Shown here: piece by piece, positions 3,046 to 37,705 of the stretch
Position numbering within the stretch: position 1 is the stretch's first letter
Layout: each line of letters starts with the position of its first letter
DNA from: Minisyncoccota bacterium
GTDB lineage: Bacteria; Patescibacteriota; Minisyncoccia; Phycocordibacterales; UBA9973
Assembly (NCBI GenBank): GCA_041665925.1
Contig: JBAYHW010000006.1
Span: forward strand, 1-46,082
Length of the DNA stretch: 46,082 nt
Direction: 5' to 3'
Translations under genes and position numbers: made by a program
The notes under the pieces: model-generated
Told to the model about the DNA's origin: nothing
The model's database searches: none
Seen by the model: only the letters and a program-made list of their open reading frames with translations

Positions 3046-3960
3046 ATGAGGAAATCAACCCAAAATTTATTAGATGCTATAGGCAACACACCTTTAATAA
3101 GAGTCTCGTTCAAAACTAAGGGGGAAATTTTTGCAAAATTGGAATATTTAAACCCCGGAGGTAGCATCAAGGATCGTTCTGCTCTTTTTATAATTGAGGA
3201 AGCTGAACAAAAAGGTTGGTTGAAAAAGGGCGGTACAATCATTGAGTCTTCATCGGGCAACCAGGGAGTTGCCTGCGCAATGATAGGCGCACTCAAAGGT
3301 TACAAAGTCATTATTACTGCTTCTCCTGCAATGAGCGAGGAAAAAGTAAAAACAATAATGGCTTACGGAGCAAAGGTCATACACTGTCCTGCTGTGCCAA
3401 TCCACGATCCAAAAAGTCGGCATAGTGTGGCTGTGGCACTAACTAAGAAAATAAAAAATTCTTTTATGCCGAACCAATATTTTAATCTTTCTAACCCTAA
3501 GGCTCATTATTCCACTTTAGGTCCCGAAATTTGGAGACAAACACAAGGTAAAATTACGCATTATTTCGGAGCAGCGGGTACTGGAGGAACTATCAGTGGC
3601 GTTGGAAAATTTTTAAAAGAAAAAAATACAAATATTAAAATTATGGCTGTTGATGTCGATACATCTTTCCACTCCACGGACGGCAATCCAAAACCCTACA
3701 GAATGGAAGGCATCGGCGTTGATTTTGATACTCCCTGCTTAGATGAATCCGTAATCGATGAATTTTTCAAGGTCTCTGATAAAGATGGTTTAGGAATGCT
3801 ACCTAAAATGGCTTCAGAGTACGGGTTACTGGTTGGCACAGGAAGCGGCGCGGTATCTTTTGCTGTGCAAAAATATTTAAAAAACCTCAAAAAGACTGAC
3901 GTCGTGGTTATGCTCTTCGGCGACTCTGGCCGCGCTTATTTATCTAAGAATTATTATTAA
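3046..3960 (+). CDS. cysK: PLP-dependent cysteine synthase / cystathionine beta-synthase family protein
   Basis: IGNTPL, KLEYLNPGGSIKDR (PLP lysine), SSGNQG, GTGGTISG, EGIG, DSGRAYLSK. Confidence 0.85.
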   Translation: MRKSTQNLLDAIGNTPLIRVSFKTKGEIFAKLEYLNPGGSIKDRSALFIIEEAEQKGWLKKGGTIIESSSGNQGVACAMIGALKGYKVIITASPAMSEEKVKTIMAYGAKVIHCPAVPIHDPKSRHSVAVALTKKIKNSFMPNQYFNLSNPKAHYSTLGPEIWRQTQGKITHYFGAAGTGGTISGVGKFLKEKNTNIKIMAVDVDTSFHSTDGNPKPYRMEGIGVDFDTPCLDESVIDEFFKVSDKDGLGMLPKMASEYGLLVGTGSGAVSFAVQKYLKNLKKTDVVVMLFGDSGRAYLSKNYY

Positions 3961-4002
3961 TAACTATTAACGTTAATTTTCTAGCTAATTTTTCCAAATT
4001 CC

Positions 4003-4036
4003 TTAGTATACGATATATGATAGGTTAATGAAACGA
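4003..4036. repeat. Degenerate copy of a 34-bp palindromic repeat, downstream of the TrpR-like gene
   Basis: TTAGTATACGATATATGATAGGTTAATGAAACGA, 28/34 identical to 4480-4513. Confidence 0.8.
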
Positions 4037-4051
4037 GTTATCAAAATAGGT

Positions 4052-4456
4052 TTAGTTTTTTTCGTATAAGAACTTCCACCTTCCTCTCCCAGCGCGAGGA
4101 GGCAAACCAGCTCTAAGAATTTTTTCTAAGATTCCCCAAAGGTCCGATTTTTCTTGTCTTATGGCTCGAAGAATAGCGGAGTATTTGCCTATGTCATATT
4201 TTAGCGACATTCTGAATATAGTGCTGTAACTCATGCCTAAAGATTCGGCTATGTATGAAACTGGAACTTCCTGAGACAATAGGTAAATAACAGCAAACCG
4301 TTTCGCTAACATAACCTTTTCGGTCTTAGTTAAGATGTCACCCAAAAATAGACCGGCTTTAGACCTCCGTGCCGACTTTTCAAATGCTTGCCCAAATTCT
4401 TTATAAAGTTTGTTGAGAATTTCCTGCTTTAATTTTTTAGAAGACACATGCGGCAT
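4052..4456 (-). CDS. TrpR/YerC/YecD-like helix-turn-helix protein
   Basis: LTKTEKVMLAKRFAVIYLL...SYIAESLGMSYSTIFR matches the TrpR-like T-x-x-E...R pattern plus HTH. Confidence 0.75.
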   Translation of the reverse strand: MPHVSSKKLKQEILNKLYKEFGQAFEKSARRSKAGLFLGDILTKTEKVMLAKRFAVIYLLSQEVPVSYIAESLGMSYSTIFRMSLKYDIGKYSAILRAIRQEKSDLWGILEKILRAGLPPRAGRGRWKFLYEKN

Positions 4457-4479
4457 AAGAATGCAAATTGTTTATTTTG

Positions 4480-4513
4480 TTAGTATATCATATATGATAT
4501 ACTAAGGAAACGA
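4480..4513. repeat. 34-bp repeat containing a perfect 26-bp palindrome, upstream of the TrpR-like gene
   Basis: TTAGTATATCATA|TATGATATACTAA (4480-4505) followed by GGAAACGA. Confidence 0.85.
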
Positions 4514-4532
4514 TTTCATTTAGATGCAAGTA

Positions 4533-5063
4533 TTACAATGTTGAACAGTAAGATTGTAGCCCGTTCATAACAATTCCGTTTGTCTGTACTTCGTAAGTTT
4601 TTTCTCCAAATGTAGCAGGAACTGCGCACGTATGAGACATAGACCCATCCCATCTCGGATCTTCAATCTCGGTTCCATATTGGAAATTACACTTTCCATT
4701 TGTAATTCCCGTAAAAATAAAAACTGTGCTACCAAATCCAAAGTAAACGGTTTCACGTCCGGCCTTACAGGTGGAAAAATCGATCTTAATTTGAGTTGTC
4801 ATGCCAGAATCAGGAATGCTAGTCAATGTCGATTTATTTGTTTGAGTAGTCTGCTCAATAGGTGAAGTATCGGGGTTGTTTGAATTTTGTACTTTTGGTT
4901 CTGAACTATTAGAAATATCTACTTGTCGAGTTATGTTATTATCTGTTGTAATTGGATTTTCCACATTTGTTGTCTTATAAACATACACGCCATAACCAGC
5001 CATCGCTATAATTACTATTATCAGTAAAATTGGAACAATAAACCCTTTTTGTAATTTTTTCAT
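4533..5063 (-). CDS. Membrane-anchored surface protein with a pilin-like N-terminus and Cys-containing C-terminal domain
   Basis: MKKLQKGF followed by a hydrophobic helix (class III signal-like, no Glu5), a Thr/Asn/Ser linker and four Cys. Confidence 0.6.
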   Translation of the reverse strand: MKKLQKGFIVPILLIIVIIAMAGYGVYVYKTTNVENPITTDNNITRQVDISNSSEPKVQNSNNPDTSPIEQTTQTNKSTLTSIPDSGMTTQIKIDFSTCKAGRETVYFGFGSTVFIFTGITNGKCNFQYGTEIEDPRWDGSMSHTCAVPATFGEKTYEVQTNGIVMNGLQSYCSTL

Positions 5064-5072
5064 ATTTTTTAA

Positions 5073-6095
5073 TTATTTTATAGTCTCCCCTGTTTTGATG
5101 ACGTGGTCAATGAGAGTGTAGGTATACCCCATTTCGTTGTCATACCAACCCATAACTTTTACTAGATTTCCTCCGACAACGCGAGTCATTGCAAGATCGG
5201 CAATCGAACCATAGTGACTTCCAAGAATATCACTTGAGACGAGTGGCTCTTCGGTCACCGCAAATAGTTTACTCCAATGTGCGTCCCCAGCAGCTTTTTT
5301 AAGAATAGAATTTACCTCCTCAACAGTAGTATCTCGCTTAGCAATAAAAGTAATATCCACAATAGATCCTGCCGGCACTGGCACTCGAACAGATATTCCA
5401 TCGAAGAGCCCTTTGAGTTCTGGGAAGGCTTTCGTCACAGCTATAGCTGCACCAGTAGAGCTAGGCACGATGTTCTGTGCTGCTGCTCTGCCTTCTCGCA
5501 TATCTTTTTTACTTGTACCATCTATCAACGCTTGTGAAGCAGTGTATCCGTGTACAGTATTTAAAACTGCTTTTTCTATACCAATGGCTTCATGTAAAAT
5601 CGCAATGAGCGGTGAAGCCGCATTCGTTGTGCAAGATGCATTTGAAGTAATGTCGCAGGTACCAAACTTATCTTCATTGACTCCGAGCAAAATTGTCTCC
5701 CCCGGCACTGTGCCGTCTCCTTTTGAAGGAGCAGAAATTACAACTTTTTTTGCCCCAGCATCAAGATGCACTTTTGACTTTTCAAAACTTGTGAAAAGTC
5801 CGGTGGATTCTACCACCACGTCAATTTCTAAATCTTTCCAAGGCAATAAACTCGGATCCTTTTGCGCTAAAACTTTTACTTTTTTACCATCAATAACCAG
5901 ACTGTCGCCATCAATTTGAATATCGTGTTCCCATTTTTTGTAAACAGTATCGTACTTAAGAAGATAAGCCATATTGGCAATAACGCCTAAGTCATTGACA
6001 GCTACTACCTCTATTTCAGGCCTTTCCCAGGCAACTTTGAGGAATGCCCTGCCAATTCTGCCGAAACCATTAATGCCCACTTTGATTTTTTTCAT
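5073..6095 (-). CDS. gap: Glyceraldehyde-3-phosphate dehydrogenase, type I
   Basis: GINGFGRIGR, SNASCTTN, WYDNE; second ATG (6095) chosen because it lies 6 nt after TGG-TACAAT. Confidence 0.97.
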   Translation of the reverse strand: MKKIKVGINGFGRIGRAFLKVAWERPEIEVVAVNDLGVIANMAYLLKYDTVYKKWEHDIQIDGDSLVIDGKKVKVLAQKDPSLLPWKDLEIDVVVESTGLFTSFEKSKVHLDAGAKKVVISAPSKGDGTVPGETILLGVNEDKFGTCDITSNASCTTNAASPLIAILHEAIGIEKAVLNTVHGYTASQALIDGTSKKDMREGRAAAQNIVPSSTGAAIAVTKAFPELKGLFDGISVRVPVPAGSIVDITFIAKRDTTVEEVNSILKKAAGDAHWSKLFAVTEEPLVSSDILGSHYGSIADLAMTRVVGGNLVKVMGWYDNEMGYTYTLIDHVIKTGETIK

Positions 6096-6156
6096 GCCCA
6101 TATTGTACCAAAAAGAAGTTAAAACAACAAAATTAAAATGTGCTATTATAGGGAAA

Positions 6157-13017: not shown

Positions 13018-13905
13018 ATGAAACTAAATTTTGCATTTTTTGGTACGCCTGACGTGGCCTCTCATACCCTTGAAATTTTAAAAGGGGATGGTTATATACC
13101 TTCCTTAATAATAACCTCCCCTGACAAGCCAAAGGGGCGTAAAATGCTTATAGCTCCCCCACCGGTGAAAATTTGGGCAGAAGAAAACAATATCCCATAT
13201 ATTCAACCAGAAAAATTGACTAAAAAAGAAATTTATAATGTTTTGAGAACCCTTTCGTGGGCTGACGAGCCGAGAAGAGCAATTTTACAGCAGGAAAATA
13301 TGCGTGGTGAACAAAATATTATAGATTTCTTCCTGGTTGTCGCTTATGGAAAAATAATTCCTGAAGAAATTTTAAATATACCGAAACTTGGCTCAATTAA
13401 CATACATTATTCCCTGTTGCCGAAATATCGTGGAGCCTCACCCGTTGAATCCGCAATACTAAATGGAGACATAGAAACAGGGGTGACTATTCAAAAAATG
13501 GTTTACAAAATGGACGCTGGGCCTATAATTGCCACAGAAAAAACAAGTATTCTACCTGATGAAACATCTCCAGATCTAAGGAAGCGCCTAATCAAAATCG
13601 GCGGAGAACTTTTGATAAAAACTTTACCGAAATTAATAAATAAAGAAACAGAGGAAATCCCCCAAGATGAAAGCAACGCAACTCACTCTAAAAAAATTAA
13701 GAAAGAAGATGGATTAATTGACTTATGCGACAACGCTGTAAAAAATTACAACAAATTTAGAGCCTACGCCACCTGGCCTAGAACTTTCTTTTTTAAAGAT
13801 GGCAAAAGAATCCTAATCACCAAAACAAAGTTAGAAGAAGGTAAATTTATTATAGAAAAAATTATCCCTGAAGGTGGCAAGGAAATTGACTATACAAATA
13901 ACTAA
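13018..13905 (+). CDS. fmt: Methionyl-tRNA formyltransferase with an internal insertion
   Basis: FFGTP, VVAYG, NIHYSLLPKYRGASP, MDAGPI. Confidence 0.95.
   Translation: MKLNFAFFGTPDVASHTLEILKGDGYIPSLIITSPDKPKGRKMLIAPPPVKIWAEENNIPYIQPEKLTKKEIYNVLRTLSWADEPRRAILQQENMRGEQNIIDFFLVVAYGKIIPEEILNIPKLGSINIHYSLLPKYRGASPVESAILNGDIETGVTIQKMVYKMDAGPIIATEKTSILPDETSPDLRKRLIKIGGELLIKTLPKLINKETEEIPQDESNATHSKKIKKEDGLIDLCDNAVKNYNKFRAYATWPRTFFFKDGKRILITKTKLEEGKFIIEKIIPEGGKEIDYTNN
13234..13323. repeat. 90-bp in-frame palindromic insertion inside fmt
   Basis: TATAATGTTTTG (13234-13245) and CAAAATATTATA (13312-13323) form an 11/12 inverted repeat; the span is exactly 30 codons at a position where Fmt is normally short. 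Confidence 0.55.
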
Positions 13906-15641
13906 TACACCTCTTGTTGGTAGCATTTTTCACAATAAACTATATCAGGACTGTCTGGAGAATAGGAAGTCTCAAATTCATTCGGACAATGTCCTTCATT
14001 ATGTAAATGATGAATGGCAAAATTCTTATAAACTCCGTTTTCGGATTCTACTCCCGCACACTGACACGATCTATGCCAAAGCTTAGATGAATTTAATTTA
14101 TTTAATCTTCCGTAATAACGACAATTAGGGCAAAGTCTAGGAAGCGGTAAATTCATTCTTTTATAAAATTCCAGCTCTCTAGGAATGATTCTAAAGGCTG
14201 TCGTACAGCCATGCTTACAATCCCCCATATCAGCACAACCTATAGACTGAGTTAAAATATCTTCACTGATATCTTTAATATCATCTGGCAGGTCTTCTGG
14301 TTTGATAGTAATATCATAATTTTTAGTATTAGGGTCTTGCCATCTCAATCCCCTACTTAAAGCTTCTTCCTTGGTAAGTGGAAAGTATTCCTGCGCTACT
14401 GTTTCATTATATGCAAACATGGATAACTCCATTGGACAAAATTCTCCATATTCTCCTGCTGCTGTCATTTGTTTTATAATTTTTTCGGTTAAACTTTTGT
14501 ACTCTTCTTCTGAATATTGTTTATTAAAAATACAAAATTCTTTATTCTTTAGACCAATACATGCAAAAACATTTTTAGATTGATTACACATAAAAGAGTA
14601 CTGACTGTCGGTAGAATGCACGGCACGCAAACAGAATTTTACATTGTATGATCTCCCACTACTAGTACATTCATATGCGAGTTCTGTATCTCCCCCACTG
14701 TAAGTATCCATAGAGTCTTTATAGCGCATATTATCCCAAATATATCGTACATTTTCGCAATCCTTAACCCCGAAACTCATAAAAACATTTTTAGAGCCAA
14801 CAATATTGTCTCCGGTAGAATTAGGAGAATTTATAATAGTTAGATTTCTATTAATACTATTTTCGCAAAGTGTCTTAAATTCTTTTAAGGCTTTTTCTTT
14901 TTCAGCAAAAGAGCCTGAATTGTATTCGGCCATTTTCTTTATATATTCTTCTTTAGAAAGTTGTTCGTTTTTAAAACAATATTGTTTATTGCGTAAATTG
15001 GTGCACATAAAGCAATCAAGACAATTTTTACAATTAAGAAGCATGCTGGAATTAGCGCAATTTTCAGAAAACATAGAAAAACTTAAGAAACTACATGAAA
15101 TACACTCAACGCACTCATATAGAAATTCTGAACCATCGAAGATTTGCATACAATCTACGCAATCTCTAGATCTATTTACCCGGTAACCATAAAGAGCATT
15201 TGTAGAATAATGAGTCCTAGCACATAAATAACAATCCTTGGAGCGACCGACGTCATTGTTGTAATCACAATTTTCAGAATTCTCTATACGTAAAGATGGC
15301 CACGGCATCTTGAGCATAAATTCTCTCATTTGAGGGAAAAATGGCCTAGAAAAATCATAGTCTTGCCCATACTCCATGGGGTCAAATTCATCACTATACC
15401 AAAACTTTTGATCGAAAACTTTATGCGGTGAATCCGGCGAATACACAGAAATTATATCTTTACCAGTTTTATCGCATTTCCTTTTATATAAAATTCGTTC
15501 ATTTCGGAAACTCATCCGACGCATTTGCCTACAATCCGTACATAAAGTCGGTGGAGGAACTTTTACTTTTTCATAAAAATTAAAATCCTCAACTTCGATA
15601 TTGAAAGTTTTTTTACAATTTTTACAATTCCTTGTTTCCAT
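13902..15641 (-). CDS. Large Cys-rich, multi-zinc-ribbon protein of unknown function (CPR-typical family by recollection)
   Basis: CKNC, CTDC, CDKTG, many CxxC/CxC repeats, CPNC, CEKCY; start METRNC at 15641 avoids overlap with raiA. Confidence 0.75.
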   Translation of the reverse strand: METRNCKNCKKTFNIEVEDFNFYEKVKVPPPTLCTDCRQMRRMSFRNERILYKRKCDKTGKDIISVYSPDSPHKVFDQKFWYSDEFDPMEYGQDYDFSRPFFPQMREFMLKMPWPSLRIENSENCDYNNDVGRSKDCYLCARTHYSTNALYGYRVNRSRDCVDCMQIFDGSEFLYECVECISCSFLSFSMFSENCANSSMLLNCKNCLDCFMCTNLRNKQYCFKNEQLSKEEYIKKMAEYNSGSFAEKEKALKEFKTLCENSINRNLTIINSPNSTGDNIVGSKNVFMSFGVKDCENVRYIWDNMRYKDSMDTYSGGDTELAYECTSSGRSYNVKFCLRAVHSTDSQYSFMCNQSKNVFACIGLKNKEFCIFNKQYSEEEYKSLTEKIIKQMTAAGEYGEFCPMELSMFAYNETVAQEYFPLTKEEALSRGLRWQDPNTKNYDITIKPEDLPDDIKDISEDILTQSIGCADMGDCKHGCTTAFRIIPRELEFYKRMNLPLPRLCPNCRYYGRLNKLNSSKLWHRSCQCAGVESENGVYKNFAIHHLHNEGHCPNEFETSYSPDSPDIVYCEKCYQQEVY

Positions 15642-15660
15642 CACAGTCCAAAGTGTATAT

Positions 15661-16059
15661 TTAGTATTTAGAAGTAAAAGGATTTCGTTTAGAAAGACCT
15701 TTGAGCATTTTTTTGACGCTCTTGGCACCGCGACGGAATAATGTCTGCTTGCGGTCTTTGTTCTTATTTATCTCGTTAAAAAGAATCTCTTTGACTTCGT
15801 CTACGGCACTATACAAATCTTCATTATCACTACTGCCATAGAAGTTGTCGCCGTCTATGGTTATGGAACAATCTGCATGAAAAACTTCTCCAGCCTTGTG
15901 GTGATTCGTAGACTTTGAAACCTCAAAAGAGACTTTGACCTCCCCGGCCTTTGTTTTTATGTTTGATAATAATTTTTCTAGGTTGGTTACCCGTTTTAAA
16001 ACATAATCTTTAATAGCTTCTGTCAATTCCATGTTTTTACTTTGTAAATTTATTTGCAT
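15661..16059 (-). CDS. raiA: Ribosome-associated translation inhibitor / hibernation factor
   Basis: MQINLQSKNMELTEAIKDYV...EDLYSAVD matches the RaiA/HPF pattern. Confidence 0.88.
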   Translation of the reverse strand: MQINLQSKNMELTEAIKDYVLKRVTNLEKLLSNIKTKAGEVKVSFEVSKSTNHHKAGEVFHADCSITIDGDNFYGSSDNEDLYSAVDEVKEILFNEINKNKDRKQTLFRRGAKSVKKMLKGLSKRNPFTSKY

Positions 16060-35595: not shown

Positions 35596-36200
35596 TTTAT
35601 ATGCCGAGCAAAGGTTACAAAATGAGCAAGGAACATAAAGACGCTATATCTAAGGCGCTAAAGGGTCACGTCTCTTCTGAGGAAACTAGAAGAAAGATTG
35701 GTCTGGCTAATAGAGGTGTTTGGATAAAGTTCAATTGTGATTATTGCGGAAAAGAAAATGAAGAGAAACAATCACATTATAAGAAAAAGGTACGACATTT
35801 CTGTGATGCAAAATGCTATGCATCTTTCGTAAAAGAAAAACAGCCATTAGGTGAAAAGAACGCGTATAAGGGAGTAAGGAAGATTGGTGAAAACAAACAG
35901 GTTTATCATCGCAATTATGTAAAAAATCATCCAGAAAATATAGCTCACTTAAAAGCTCGAAGATATGCACGAGAGCGAAATGCTGAAGGCAGTCACACTT
36001 TGGCTGAGTGGATTGCATTAAAACTTAAATACGATAATAAATGCATTCATTGTAAAGAGTTTAAGCCACTCACAAAAGACCACATCTTACCTTTAGCAGA
36101 AGGAGGTACAGACTATATTCACAACATTCAACCCCTCTGTCGAAACTGCAATAGCAAGAAATGGAAGAAATTGGACTACGTTATTTCCCAAAAATTATGA
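35592..36200 (+). CDS. HNH endonuclease with N-terminal NUMOD3-like repeats and a Zn finger
   Basis: HKDAISKALKGHVSSEETRRKIG; CDYC; CIHC...TKDHILP...GGTDYIHNIQPLCRNCNSKK; start is GTG 35592 or ATG 35601. Confidence 0.85.
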   Translation: MIYMPSKGYKMSKEHKDAISKALKGHVSSEETRRKIGLANRGVWIKFNCDYCGKENEEKQSHYKKKVRHFCDAKCYASFVKEKQPLGEKNAYKGVRKIGENKQVYHRNYVKNHPENIAHLKARRYARERNAEGSHTLAEWIALKLKYDNKCIHCKEFKPLTKDHILPLAEGGTDYIHNIQPLCRNCNSKKWKKLDYVISQKL

Positions 36201-37705
36201 AAGCAATAAAAGTCTCACGCGTATCAACAGAAGAACAAAAAGAAGCTGGTAATTCACTCCCAGCTCAAATTAAACGTATAGATGATTATTGCAAAAGAAA
36301 GGGCTTTGAGGTCATTCGCTCTTTTAGTTTTGATGAGAGCGCTTACAAAGATAAACGGGATGAGTTTGATAAGTTGGTTGAATATGTCCAAGACATTGCG
36401 AAGAAAGAAAAAATAGCAGTTTGTTTTGATAAAGTAGACCGTCTTTCAAGAAGTGTTTTTGATTCAAGAGTGGGCACTTTATATCAAATGTCCGTAGAGG
36501 GAAAAATTGAGCTTCACTTTGTTTCTGACAACCAGGTTTTGAACGGTAGTTTATCTGCAACAGAGAAAGGTGGTTTTGGTATGAGTCTTGTGATGGCAAG
36601 CTATTATTCAAATGCAATTAGTGACAACGTAAAACGAGCATTTGAACAAAAACGCAGAAATGGTGAATGGACTGGAGGGGTACGCATAGGATACAAGAAT
36701 GTATCACTTGATGTTGAGAAGAGATTAAGAAAAGATATTATTCTTGACCCCGACAGAGCACATCTAGTTCAAATGATATTTGAGCTTTATGCCACTGGAA
36801 ATTATTCGATGGAGGCAATTCGGGTGAAGATTACTGAAATGGGATTAAGAACTCGTGACGGAAACGTTTTATCGAAGAGTGGAATAGAAAACATTTTGAA
36901 AGATAGTTTCTTTTGTGGGATTGCTGTATCAAAGAAATACAACCTGACTTGGGTTCATAATTATCCTCGCATCACTACAAGGGAGATATTTGATAAGTGT
37001 CAAGAACTACGAGCAAAACGAAAGACATCACGCCCAAAATCTCTCTCAAAGGATTTTATATTTAAGGGTTTACTTAAATGTCAGAACTGCGGATGCTCAA
37101 TGAGTGCTGAAATTAAAAAGGGGCGTTTTGTTTATTACTCCTGTACAAATGCAAAGCGTATTTGTAAACGAGTATATGTGCCTGAAAAGACACTCCTTGA
37201 GCCTGTGTACGAGCTTCTGGGACGCTTTGAGAGCATTAAAGAGGAAGTTCAAGATGGCCTGGTTAGGGAGCTAAGGAAGAACACAGAATCAGAGGTGGTT
37301 TTCCATAAAGCCCAGATAAGTCGTATCACCAGTGAATATGAACAGATAAAATCGAAAGATGACAGGTTGCTAGAAAGGTATCTTGAAGACAGCACGAGTA
37401 TTACTAAAGATATCTATGACAAAAAACATCAAGAATATGCTGATGCACTCCAGGTCCTAGAGATAGAACTTAGTGAAAATAGAAAAGCGGACTATGACTA
37501 CCAAACCACGGTAGCTACTGTGGTTTCTGTTGCTCGTCGCGCAAAGCAAATCTTTGAAGGTTCTGAACCATCTGAAAAACGAGCACTTTTAAACTATATA
37601 CTTCAGAACCCAACCGTAAACGAAAAGAAGCTATGTTTTTCAATAGCTTCTCCGTTCAATCTAGTCCTAGACCTAGCTGATAGTCCTATTTGGCTCCGGG
37701 GGTAG
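36197..37705 (+). CDS. Large serine recombinase (integrase); 3' end reads into the tRNA
   Basis: RVSTEEQ catalytic motif, DKVDRLSR, recombinase domain, CQNC...YYSC Zn ribbon, coiled coil; ends TGG CTC CGG GGG TAG antisense to the tRNA 3' end. Confidence 0.93.
   Translation: MKAIKVSRVSTEEQKEAGNSLPAQIKRIDDYCKRKGFEVIRSFSFDESAYKDKRDEFDKLVEYVQDIAKKEKIAVCFDKVDRLSRSVFDSRVGTLYQMSVEGKIELHFVSDNQVLNGSLSATEKGGFGMSLVMASYYSNAISDNVKRAFEQKRRNGEWTGGVRIGYKNVSLDVEKRLRKDIILDPDRAHLVQMIFELYATGNYSMEAIRVKITEMGLRTRDGNVLSKSGIENILKDSFFCGIAVSKKYNLTWVHNYPRITTREIFDKCQELRAKRKTSRPKSLSKDFIFKGLLKCQNCGCSMSAEIKKGRFVYYSCTNAKRICKRVYVPEKTLLEPVYELLGRFESIKEEVQDGLVRELRKNTESEVVFHKAQISRITSEYEQIKSKDDRLLERYLEDSTSITKDIYDKKHQEYADALQVLEIELSENRKADYDYQTTVATVVSVARRAKQIFEGSEPSEKRALLNYILQNPTVNEKKLCFSIASPFNLVLDLADSPIWLRG
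37689..37697. repeat. tRNA-proximal att core (9-bp direct repeat)
   Basis: TTTGGCTCC, overlapping the tRNA-Asn GGAGCCA 3' end and the integrase W-L codons. Confidence 0.8.

Follow-up and report, generated by a model that had tools for sequence, protein, structure and literature searches.

Why should the gene of a small DNA-binding protein lie between two copies of one palindrome, the second of them just past its own stop codon? The question is raised by a locus in contig JBAYHW010000006.1 of a Minisyncoccota bacterium (assembly GCA_041665925.1), of which the whole analysed stretch of 46,082 nt is called the window here. The gene encodes a helix-turn-helix (HTH) protein of 134 amino acids (aa) that resembles the repressor TrpR. 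An earlier note on this DNA had offered two explanations, either a one-gene cassette moved in trans by a site-specific recombinase or an HTH protein that binds both ends of its locus. Comparison with relatives leads us to the second of these. We assign a probability of about 0.6 to the reading that the locus is a self-bracketed pair of autoregulatory operators with a small regulon.

The geometry reported in the earlier note (the palindrome, its copy, the distances, the trailing heptamer and the outer decamers) agrees with the sequence throughout. The upstream palindrome lies 23 nt before the ATG (4456), and 15 nt separate the stop codon from the downstream copy, which is identical to the upstream one at 28/34 positions (4003-4036 versus 4480-4513). 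The match grows to 30/37 when extended to 4003-4039 versus 4480-4516. GAAACGA trails both copies, and the decamers CCTTAGTATA (4001-4010) and TATACTAAGG (4498-4507) are present as described. In gene orientation the downstream copy reads TTAACCTATCATATATCGTATACTAA, with one half-site intact and TG to CG changes in the other; its variant ..ATATCGTATA.. recurs in three further loci (L002, L003 and L021). The extension of the repeat past the palindrome (4029-4039/4506-4516) is not conserved at other loci. Within the window, a search for the 26-mer at up to 3 mismatches returned only the 26-mer itself, and 0/100 shuffles matched. The second copy stands at 5 mismatches and the next best site in the 46 kb at 8. 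In 60 block shuffles, the best site had 7-9 mismatches, and perfect palindrome arms reached at most 7-11 nt, compared with 13 nt in the window. Chance is excluded as the source of this pair, which lies far beyond it.

The exact 26-mer had zero matches in a collection of genome contigs and is, in this form, private to this genome, so that a degenerate pattern was needed to follow the element further. Far more can be learned from the protein's relatives. Among 51 loci fetched from species-representative genomes, orthologs plus paralogs (cited by L numbers), both copies, one just before the ATG and one just past the stop codon, are present in 33/33 orthologous loci. The ortholog palindromes share the core TATCATATATGATA with flanks TTAnnn and nnnTAA, and the element as a whole extends over ~38 bp across relatives (AATTCCTTAnnnTATCATATATGATAnnnTAAGGAATT). 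In the paralog loci, at 29-45% identity, both copies were recognized by eye in 14/16 cases, each subfamily being bracketed by a palindrome of its own; the flanking copies that the earlier note had made a test of its proposal are therefore found. By script, 59/61 distinct proteins with enough flanking DNA are two-sided, and the upstream copy proved present on inspection in the two that were missed (L019 and L047). Family members with this layout span many metagenome-assembled genomes (MAGs) of several named Patescibacteria lineages. All paralogs start with MPH[IV]SSKKL except the most distant one, L051. Only one additional good palindrome match occurs in ~270 kb of protein-seeded loci, in L033.

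Some loci depart from the simple pair. Three tandem copies of the own palindrome lie downstream in L047 (3979-4657), two lie upstream in L048 (3891-4490) and L041 (3854-4440), and L036 (3315-4448) has a third copy 650 nt upstream. In assembly CAYQKC01 one family gene is split over two contig ends (L028:1-383 and L050:3825-3922), and the assembly break inside it may reflect strain variation or repeats at the locus.

The link between each protein and its flanks becomes clearer when all units are aligned and the residue equivalent to Arg82 (..STIF-R-MS..) is tabulated against the half-site triplet. In counts that ignore phylogeny, proteins with Arg82 have TCA in 151/188 half-sites and CAA/CAG in 0/188, whereas those with Lys82 have CAA/CAG in 40/48 and TCA in 2/48. 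Arg82 thus goes with TATCAT..ATGATA and Lys82 with TACA[AG]T..A[CT]TGTA. The switch to Lys82 is found in paralogs and also among the orthologs (L005, L006, L009, L019), and helix variants of the form ..TLSRMS pair with TAGCAT/TAACAT cores (L010, L012, L028). The centre [AG]TATA[TC] is constant in most paralogs. Such an association is the pattern expected of direct readout by a TrpR-family dimer. L036 and L045 share an assembly, as do L011 and L040, yet the palindromes differ within each pair of paralogs, indicating that the site follows the enclosed gene, and the tracking of residue 82 by the arm sequence points to a protein that reads its own flanks. Most likely, the encoded protein binds its own flanking palindromes; the family-wide two-sided layout and the covariation of residue 82 with the site both speak for the binding of both ends that the earlier note had considered. 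HisR (YerC), a repressor of the TrpR family, is known to bind lineage-specific 20-bp palindromes (PMC9413887).

One assembly combines two members of the family in an unusual way. In JBBDZS01, the source of both L011 and L040, a 43%-identical paralog with the palindrome TATACTACGATATATTGTAGTATA fills the usual slot between thrS and gyrB (L040:3968-4455), and the ortholog of the window protein sits after GAPDH. This could result from replacement or from rapid divergence in place.

The window protein (N-terminus MPHVSSKK; recognition helix ..MSYSTIFRMS.. with Arg82; C-terminal PPRAGRGRWKFLY) matches Pfam PF01371 over residues 19-98 with 37.2 bits, above the cutoff of 27 (E = 3.1e-9). It falls below the NCBIfam cutoffs both for YerC/YecD (HisR, TIGR02531; 19.5 versus 42.2 bits) and for TrpR (TIGR01321; 18.1 versus 67.25 bits). 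Profile matches in the PDB are to YerC-like structures annotated as putative Trp repressors, namely 3FRW (E = 1.1e-4), 3G1C and 3KOR, with E values from 1e-4 to 0.08; the same TrpR-like structures head a Foldseek search with an AlphaFold2 model, none of them significantly. Weak Pfam matches to transposase-type HTH families were also seen (HTH_23, E = 5e-4), and no transposase family of Pfam or NCBIfam matched. The 285 detectable homologs are mostly 70-83% identical, their named sources being Nomurabacteria/Paceibacterota MAGs. In a profile search of 1.8 billion representatives, 540 clusters (50% identity) passed E <= 1e-10, a number that rises to 1419 at E <= 1e-3; almost all are full-length, at 125-150 aa. 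Two segments stand out by their conservation: MPH[IV]SSKK at the extreme N-terminus (residues 1-8) is near-invariant in paralogs down to ~33% identity, and GLPPRxGRGRWKFLY at the C-terminus (residues 118-131) is invariant within the ortholog group. The N-terminal segment is similar to the basic arm at the N-terminus of lambda repressor, the C-terminal one to an AT-hook-like motif. We suggest that the MPH[IV]SSKK and GRGRW segments may contact the constant TATA centre. The protein is best described as belonging to a distinct TrpR-like clade with added conserved N- and C-terminal segments, the members placed here all coming from Patescibacteria.

What would binding at the two ends achieve? At the upstream end, the gene-proximal arm TTAGTA (giving TATACT, TGATATACT) is kept in 37/44 distinct upstream sites, and the distance from palindrome edge to ATG in relatives is usually 12-13 nt, with a mode of 12 nt. 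Together, the -10-like arm and the 12-nt spacing place the promoter inside the operator and make for an almost leaderless mRNA. In the window, the upstream operator likewise overlaps the gene's own predicted promoter, with a predicted transcript start near 4475. The quality of the -10 element is conserved in upstream copies only and not at convergent palindromes that stand alone (solo sites, below). The protein, most likely as a dimer, would bind the dyad-symmetric operator with the core TATCATATATGATA in TTAnnn...nnnTAA, and its binding at the upstream copy would shut off the nearly leaderless message. The upstream site, its position and its conservation are directly visible in the alignments, and classical autorepression is what we infer from them.

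The downstream end is harder to explain: an operator after the regulator's own stop codon is the conserved feature that still lacks an explanation. It does not serve as the operator of a neighbouring promoter, which the earlier note had seen as a way for its proposal to fail, because the downstream neighbour is usually convergent (56/75 units), as is cysK in the window. The copy appears to be a second operator of the same protein. It might cooperate with the upstream site by closing a loop of ~460-480 bp around the whole gene, or it might act as a protein roadblock against polymerases arriving from convergent neighbours. Under either role, the level of the regulator would be set by its own feedback only. 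The features of the locus and the palindromes of the paralogs are collected in Table 1.

Table 1. Features of the TrpR-like locus in the window and palindromes that bracket paralogous genes
Feature	Position	Strand	Sequence or remark
TrpR-like HTH protein gene, 134 aa	4052-4456	minus	open reading frame; Pfam Trp_repressor PF01371
Upstream operator (putative binding site of the encoded protein)	4480-4505		perfect 26-bp palindrome TTAGTATATCATATATGATATACTAA; overlaps predicted promoter
Downstream operator copy (putative)	4003-4028		differs from the upstream 26-mer at 5 positions; lies where the TrpR-like gene and cysK converge, between their stop codons
Extended -10 element (predicted from sequence)	4482-4490	minus	TGATATACT; gene-proximal arm of the upstream palindrome
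Direct-repeat extension past the downstream palindrome	4029-4039	plus	TGAAACGAGTT
Partner of the repeat extension	4506-4516	plus	GGAAACGATTT; gene-distal side of the upstream palindrome
cysK-like pyridoxal phosphate enzyme gene	3046-3960	plus	Pfam PALP, E = 9.5e-66; convergent with the TrpR-like gene
GAPDH gene	5073-6101	minus	other border of the GAPDH/cysK junction
Paralog palindrome, L036/L037			TTTGGTACAATATATTGTACCAAA
Paralog palindrome, L038			AACCTTTCGATATATCGAAAGGTT
Paralog palindrome, L039			TTAACCTTACAGTATACTGTAAGGTTAA
Paralog palindrome, L045			AATCTACTACGATATATCGTAGTAGATT
Paralog palindrome, L049			ATCATACGATATATCGTATGAT
Paralog palindrome, L051			GGCACTATCACGCGTGATAGTGCC
Paralog palindrome, further example			GGTACAATATATTGTACC

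The operator also occurs away from the gene. A scan of metagenome contigs with the degenerate pattern gave at least 120 loci, in which genes were later called by a simple procedure over 1.13 Mb. Among the matches listed there are 134 exact sites, of which 42 flank a family gene, 41 lie near contig ends and 51 are solo, with over 700 nt of DNA to either side but none of the family's genes close by. Solo sites among these matches lie between 23 convergent, 48 tandem and 5 divergent gene pairs, usually 3-25 nt past a stop codon. Recurrent contexts are the convergent pair fpg and trmH with the site between them, the end of secA, and the 5' side of genes of a multi-copy family of ~570-aa proteins that have zinc ribbons at both termini and lack any Pfam domain. 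The site is on the 5' side in 15/24 of these zinc-ribbon genes and in 10 of those 6-13 nt from the ATG, mostly at exactly 13. Named neighbours of solo sites comprise the zinc-ribbon family, trmH, fpg, secA, uracil-DNA glycosylase (UDG) and msrB; no his gene was recognized among them, most neighbour clusters never having been annotated. The site between fpg and trmH is kept where the Fpg proteins are 58-65% identical and also beside a second Fpg type at ~32%, while the spacer around it is not conserved, suggesting that at least some solo sites are under selection. Lack of conserved -10 quality at the convergent sites favors a binding role over a promoter role there. Overall, the sites look sparse: the 46-kb window has 2 and the protein-seeded loci 1 extra. 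These copies would form a small regulon or a set of insulators.

The window holds a zinc-ribbon gene of this type as well (13902-15728, minus strand, and 15640-15700; ~570-600 aa, CxxCKKxF..EDFxFYEKI ... YCEKCYQQEVY), for which Pfam, NCBIfam and PADLOC gave no match. It begins ~20 nt after an HPF gene, and no palindrome is present there. Elsewhere, members of the family often have a palindrome of the TrpR type 13 nt before the ATG and occur as tandem copies.

Several observations weigh against an operator pair. Centre to centre, the two copies are 433-545 bp apart, and these distances show no helical periodicity of 10-11 bp (Rayleigh p > 0.6); a phased loop thus gains no positive support, even if phasing counts for little over such a length. 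In the window, one half-site of the downstream copy is damaged. The AlphaFold2 model, built with 24 close homologs, is all-helical and weak at a predicted local distance difference test score of 60, and phylogeny is ignored in the counts that tie residue 82 to the site. A classical operator would find nothing to repress between two convergent genes, yet many solo sites have just that position. Repression as well as loop and roadblock are steps that we infer. Finally, even close relatives differ in which palindromes and which whole units they carry, a behavior more typical of mobile DNA than of operators.

This turnover can be followed at the GAPDH/cysK junction. In L107, a locus from a 354-kb contig, GAPDH and cysK are separated by one palindrome only, which is the one-repeat empty site that the earlier note had proposed to look for in relatives. 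Nucleotide identity between L107 and the window is 76-77% across GAPDH and cysK. The window and L005 both carry the unit next to cysK, and the CysK amino-acid identities are 82% (window and L107), 78% (window and L005) and 81% (L107 and L005). The simplest reading is that the unit was lost from L107 by recombination between its two repeats. Palindromes of 26-38 bp are among the few repeats seen in the examined DNA of these genomes, and recombination between them could occasionally delete, insert or relocate a unit without a dedicated recombinase, which would explain the empty junction as well as the changing context of the units. Such recombination probably has the cassette-like turnover as its by-product. 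In the window, GAPDH and the upstream palindrome have between them a gene (4533-5063, minus strand) for a protein of 176 aa that is predicted to be membrane-anchored. No family matched this protein significantly; its gene is missing in L107 as well as in L006, L009 and L011 and is thus a lineage-specific insertion beside the unit.

The main rival of the operator pair takes the turnover at face value: palindrome-gene-palindrome units and solo sites would be the ends and footprints of a small, active mobile element, in which a catalytic partner encoded elsewhere, such as a recombinase, or some other activity would act on palindromes tagged by the HTH protein, with regulation secondary. It would resemble the modules bounded by dif sites or the REPIN/RAYT system of repetitive extragenic palindromic (REP) sequences and REP-associated tyrosine transposases (RAYTs). 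We regard this as unlikely on balance, even though much of the comparative record can be read in its favor. The CysK of L107, with its one-palindrome site, is as close to the window (82%) as that of L005 (78%). A paralog unit in L043 lies on the opposite strand between tkt and rpe, genes that are 2 nt apart in the window. The junction of HPF and zinc-ribbon genes has a solo palindrome in L135 and none in the window, and L082 lacks the palindrome between fpg and trmH even though its Fpg fragment is 92% identical, over the shared stretch, to that of the site-bearing L127. Units occur in many contexts, once in an array-like order of thrS, palindrome, UDG, palindrome, TrpR-like gene and palindrome (L083, 1232-2488), and sites are enriched at convergent rather than divergent junctions (23 versus 5 among the matches listed), as is usual for tolerated insertions. 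Upstream and downstream copies of the same locus are more alike at variable positions than copies taken from different loci (3.38 versus 2.84 of 6; 0/5000 permutations reached the observed value), and the window repeat extends past the palindrome. UDG genes also adjoin solo palindromes in L060 and L082. What decides against an active element is the lack of an enzyme and the privacy of the sites. None of the loci whose gene maps were read has an adjacent recombinase or transposase, the only recombinase of the window lies 32 kb away, and the small all-helical HTH protein has no catalytic domain. Because sites differ between paralogs even of a single genome, a shared trans-acting enzyme is unlikely. 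Copy number is low, as the single extra site in the ~270 kb of protein-seeded loci indicates; synteny is strong (thrS, unit and gyrB in 11 loci); and the protein is 70-83% identical across relatives. The L043 insertion is not bounded exactly by its palindromes (65 and 36 extra nt), and no target-site duplication was seen outside the palindromes. Together with the lineage-conserved solo sites and the absence of relatives among the viral contigs searched, the missing linked recombinase and the private paralog sites leave the cassette moved in trans that the earlier note had put forward without support.

Related proposals of mobile origin were also rejected. For an insertion sequence or a miniature inverted-repeat transposable element, the supposed terminal inverted repeats CCTTAGTATA and TATACTAAGG are the outer parts of two palindromes, with no duplication outside them. 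As to an origin from phages, plasmids or defence systems, 2.9 million viral contigs yielded no relative of the protein (plasmids were not searched), and no PHROG or PADLOC family matched; one palindrome occurs at the edge of a single viral contig. The recombinase mentioned above is a large serine recombinase (36161-37705, plus strand; CcrB-like 87 bits, XisF-like 74 bits, all below cutoffs). Unannotated open reading frames surround it at ~31.9-38.3 kb, and this region, which is not linked to the palindromes, may be an integrated element.

Three further readings dispense with binding by the encoded protein, and all are less probable still. In one, the conserved TG-n-TA-nnn-T pattern, present on either strand, would form a compact promoter of the extended -10 type that works in both directions, or the site of another factor, and the TrpR-like protein would not bind it. 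The conserved arm positions (TGATAnnnT) do match the key positions of an extended -10, and the register of 12-13 nt to the start codons of TrpR-like and zinc-ribbon genes is fixed. We nevertheless give this little credence, since the paralog arms differ widely (GGTACAAT.., TTTCGAT.., GGCACTATCACGCGTG..) and could not all serve one polymerase. The arms moreover co-vary with the helix of the enclosed protein, -10 quality is kept only in upstream copies, and a promoter has no evident role past the regulator's stop codon, facing a convergent gene. Alternatively, the palindromes could act as RNA or DNA stem-loops around the gene, as bidirectional terminators or mRNA 3' stabilisers. Solo sites 3-25 nt past stop codons and between convergent genes would suit this, as would A- and T-runs that flank some copies and the perfect 34-38-bp palindromes with a strong predicted fold (-20.2 kcal/mol, z -8.8, in L105). 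Against it, the three variable arm positions (8-10) pair no more than independence predicts, and pairing at position 8 of solo sites is 0.13 where 0.31 is expected. The downstream copy of the window is unstable as RNA (-1.4 kcal/mol, z +1.4; 196/200 shuffles fold at least as well), compared with -11.7 kcal/mol for the upstream copy, and a terminator scan of 3800-4700 found no site resembling an intrinsic terminator. What is conserved is sequence beyond symmetry that tracks a protein residue; upstream copies probably precede the transcript start; and an Rfam scan gave only a sub-threshold chance match to a miRNA. On the missing pairing covariation, the folding of the downstream copy and the terminator scan, we reject the hairpin as scarcely credible. 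A chance pair or a recent functionless local duplication, to which the ~11 nt of repeat past the palindrome might point, is refuted by the comparative data and has a negligible probability: the shuffle controls exclude chance, and the two-sided layout extends over all 61 distinct family members examined.

How does the proposed operator pair compare with known systems? In Escherichia coli, trpR is autoregulated through an operator that overlaps its own promoter. The present proteins share with TrpR and HisR the small all-helical HTH fold of PF01371 and palindromic operators. They differ from them in the longer operator (26-38 bp), in the extra MPH[IV]SSKK and GRGRW segments, in having as a rule a second operator past the stop codon, and in their sites, which lie at gene 3' ends and zinc-ribbon genes rather than at trp or his genes. 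We know of no ligand and no oligomerisation domain in the TrpR-like family. Lambda CI, whose OL and OR flank cI-rexAB, LacI, with O1 and O2 401 bp apart, and GalR and DeoR all loop DNA between two operators. As in these cases, two like dyad operators lie a few hundred bp apart with one of them on the promoter, and as in lambda the repressor gene itself lies between two operator regions. Unlike them, the present layout packs a gene of 400 bp tightly between single operators, has been conserved through hundreds of specificities, and shows no helical phasing. IS1 offers another parallel, its small DNA-binding protein InsA binding both terminal inverted repeats and repressing the left-end promoter. 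Here too a small HTH-type gene lies between two sites of its own, the upstream one holding the promoter. In contrast to IS1, there is no transposase frame and no target duplication, each end is a full palindrome, and distant lineages have kept the solo copies at one orthologous junction, suggesting function.

In stating that it knew of no described system with this layout, the earlier note went too far, given the position of lambda cI between OL and OR and of RAYT genes between REP sequences (PMC3116915, PMC3337134). As in REPIN/RAYT systems, a single-copy, mostly vertical gene is flanked by cognate palindromes that are also dispersed intergenically, often at gene ends, and each protein subfamily has its own palindrome family. 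RAYTs, however, are HUH/Y1 transposases, whereas the present protein is an HTH protein without a catalytic domain; REPs reach tens to hundreds of copies, compared with the few per 100 kb seen here; and the present palindrome is conserved across distant lineages in a fixed register to start codons. Gene modules bounded by recombinase sites are known from the dif modules of Acinetobacter (PMC6449649). Such modules and attC cassettes likewise consist of a short gene module between palindromic sites of ~26-28 bp with a 6-bp AT-rich centre, and one-copy empty sites and one array-like example (L083) occur here as well. The sites of XerC/D or IntI are shared genome-wide, whereas each paralog here has a private site that tracks its own product. 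Unlike integron cassettes, the units have no GTTRRRY core and no integrase adjacent in the window or in the gene maps that were read. The host genes are chromosomal and housekeeping, and units were not found on phage contigs (plasmids were not searched). Literature searches on TrpR/YerC, or on transcriptional regulators, together with palindromes or Patescibacteria found no description of the arrangement, only the HisR work.

If the operator pair is real, a simple rule would hold for a large TrpR-like family (at least 540 clusters at 50% identity), namely that its own operator brackets each gene. The cognate site of every member could then be read from genome sequence, and regulons of uncultivated ultra-small bacteria would become predictable in the Patescibacteria, a field with almost no regulatory data. 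The family would also form a natural library of repressor/operator pairs, maybe orthogonal ones, with a visible code (Arg82 with TCA, Lys82 with CA[AG]). The operator after the stop codon and the convergent solo sites raise the idea that protein roadblocks or loops may insulate transcription units in streamlined genomes, and the insertion and deletion differences show such repeats to be break-points for gene gain and loss as well. A bolder hypothesis, which we consider doubtful, is that the units are operator-bounded modules: HTH genes would seed solo sites and persist or move as REPIN/RAYT-like replicators built on a DNA-binding protein. Movement would proceed through a recruited host enzyme or through the palindromes as portable homology after DNA uptake, and solo copies would be co-opted as insulators or terminators between convergent genes, in genomes where other signals are few.

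Some solo sites do not stand alone in their spacers. Other families of palindromes with AT-rich centres, such as TTACGTAAT..ATTACGTAA, TACGCTATAGCGTA and CTTACATATGTAAG, lie 5-45 nt from such sites in the same short intergenic stretches (L120:2175-2245, L090:3489-3560, L062:6766-6841, L061:232-291 and L107:1175-1262). Such spacers look like intergenic hubs of dyad sites, possibly the operators of other paralogs.

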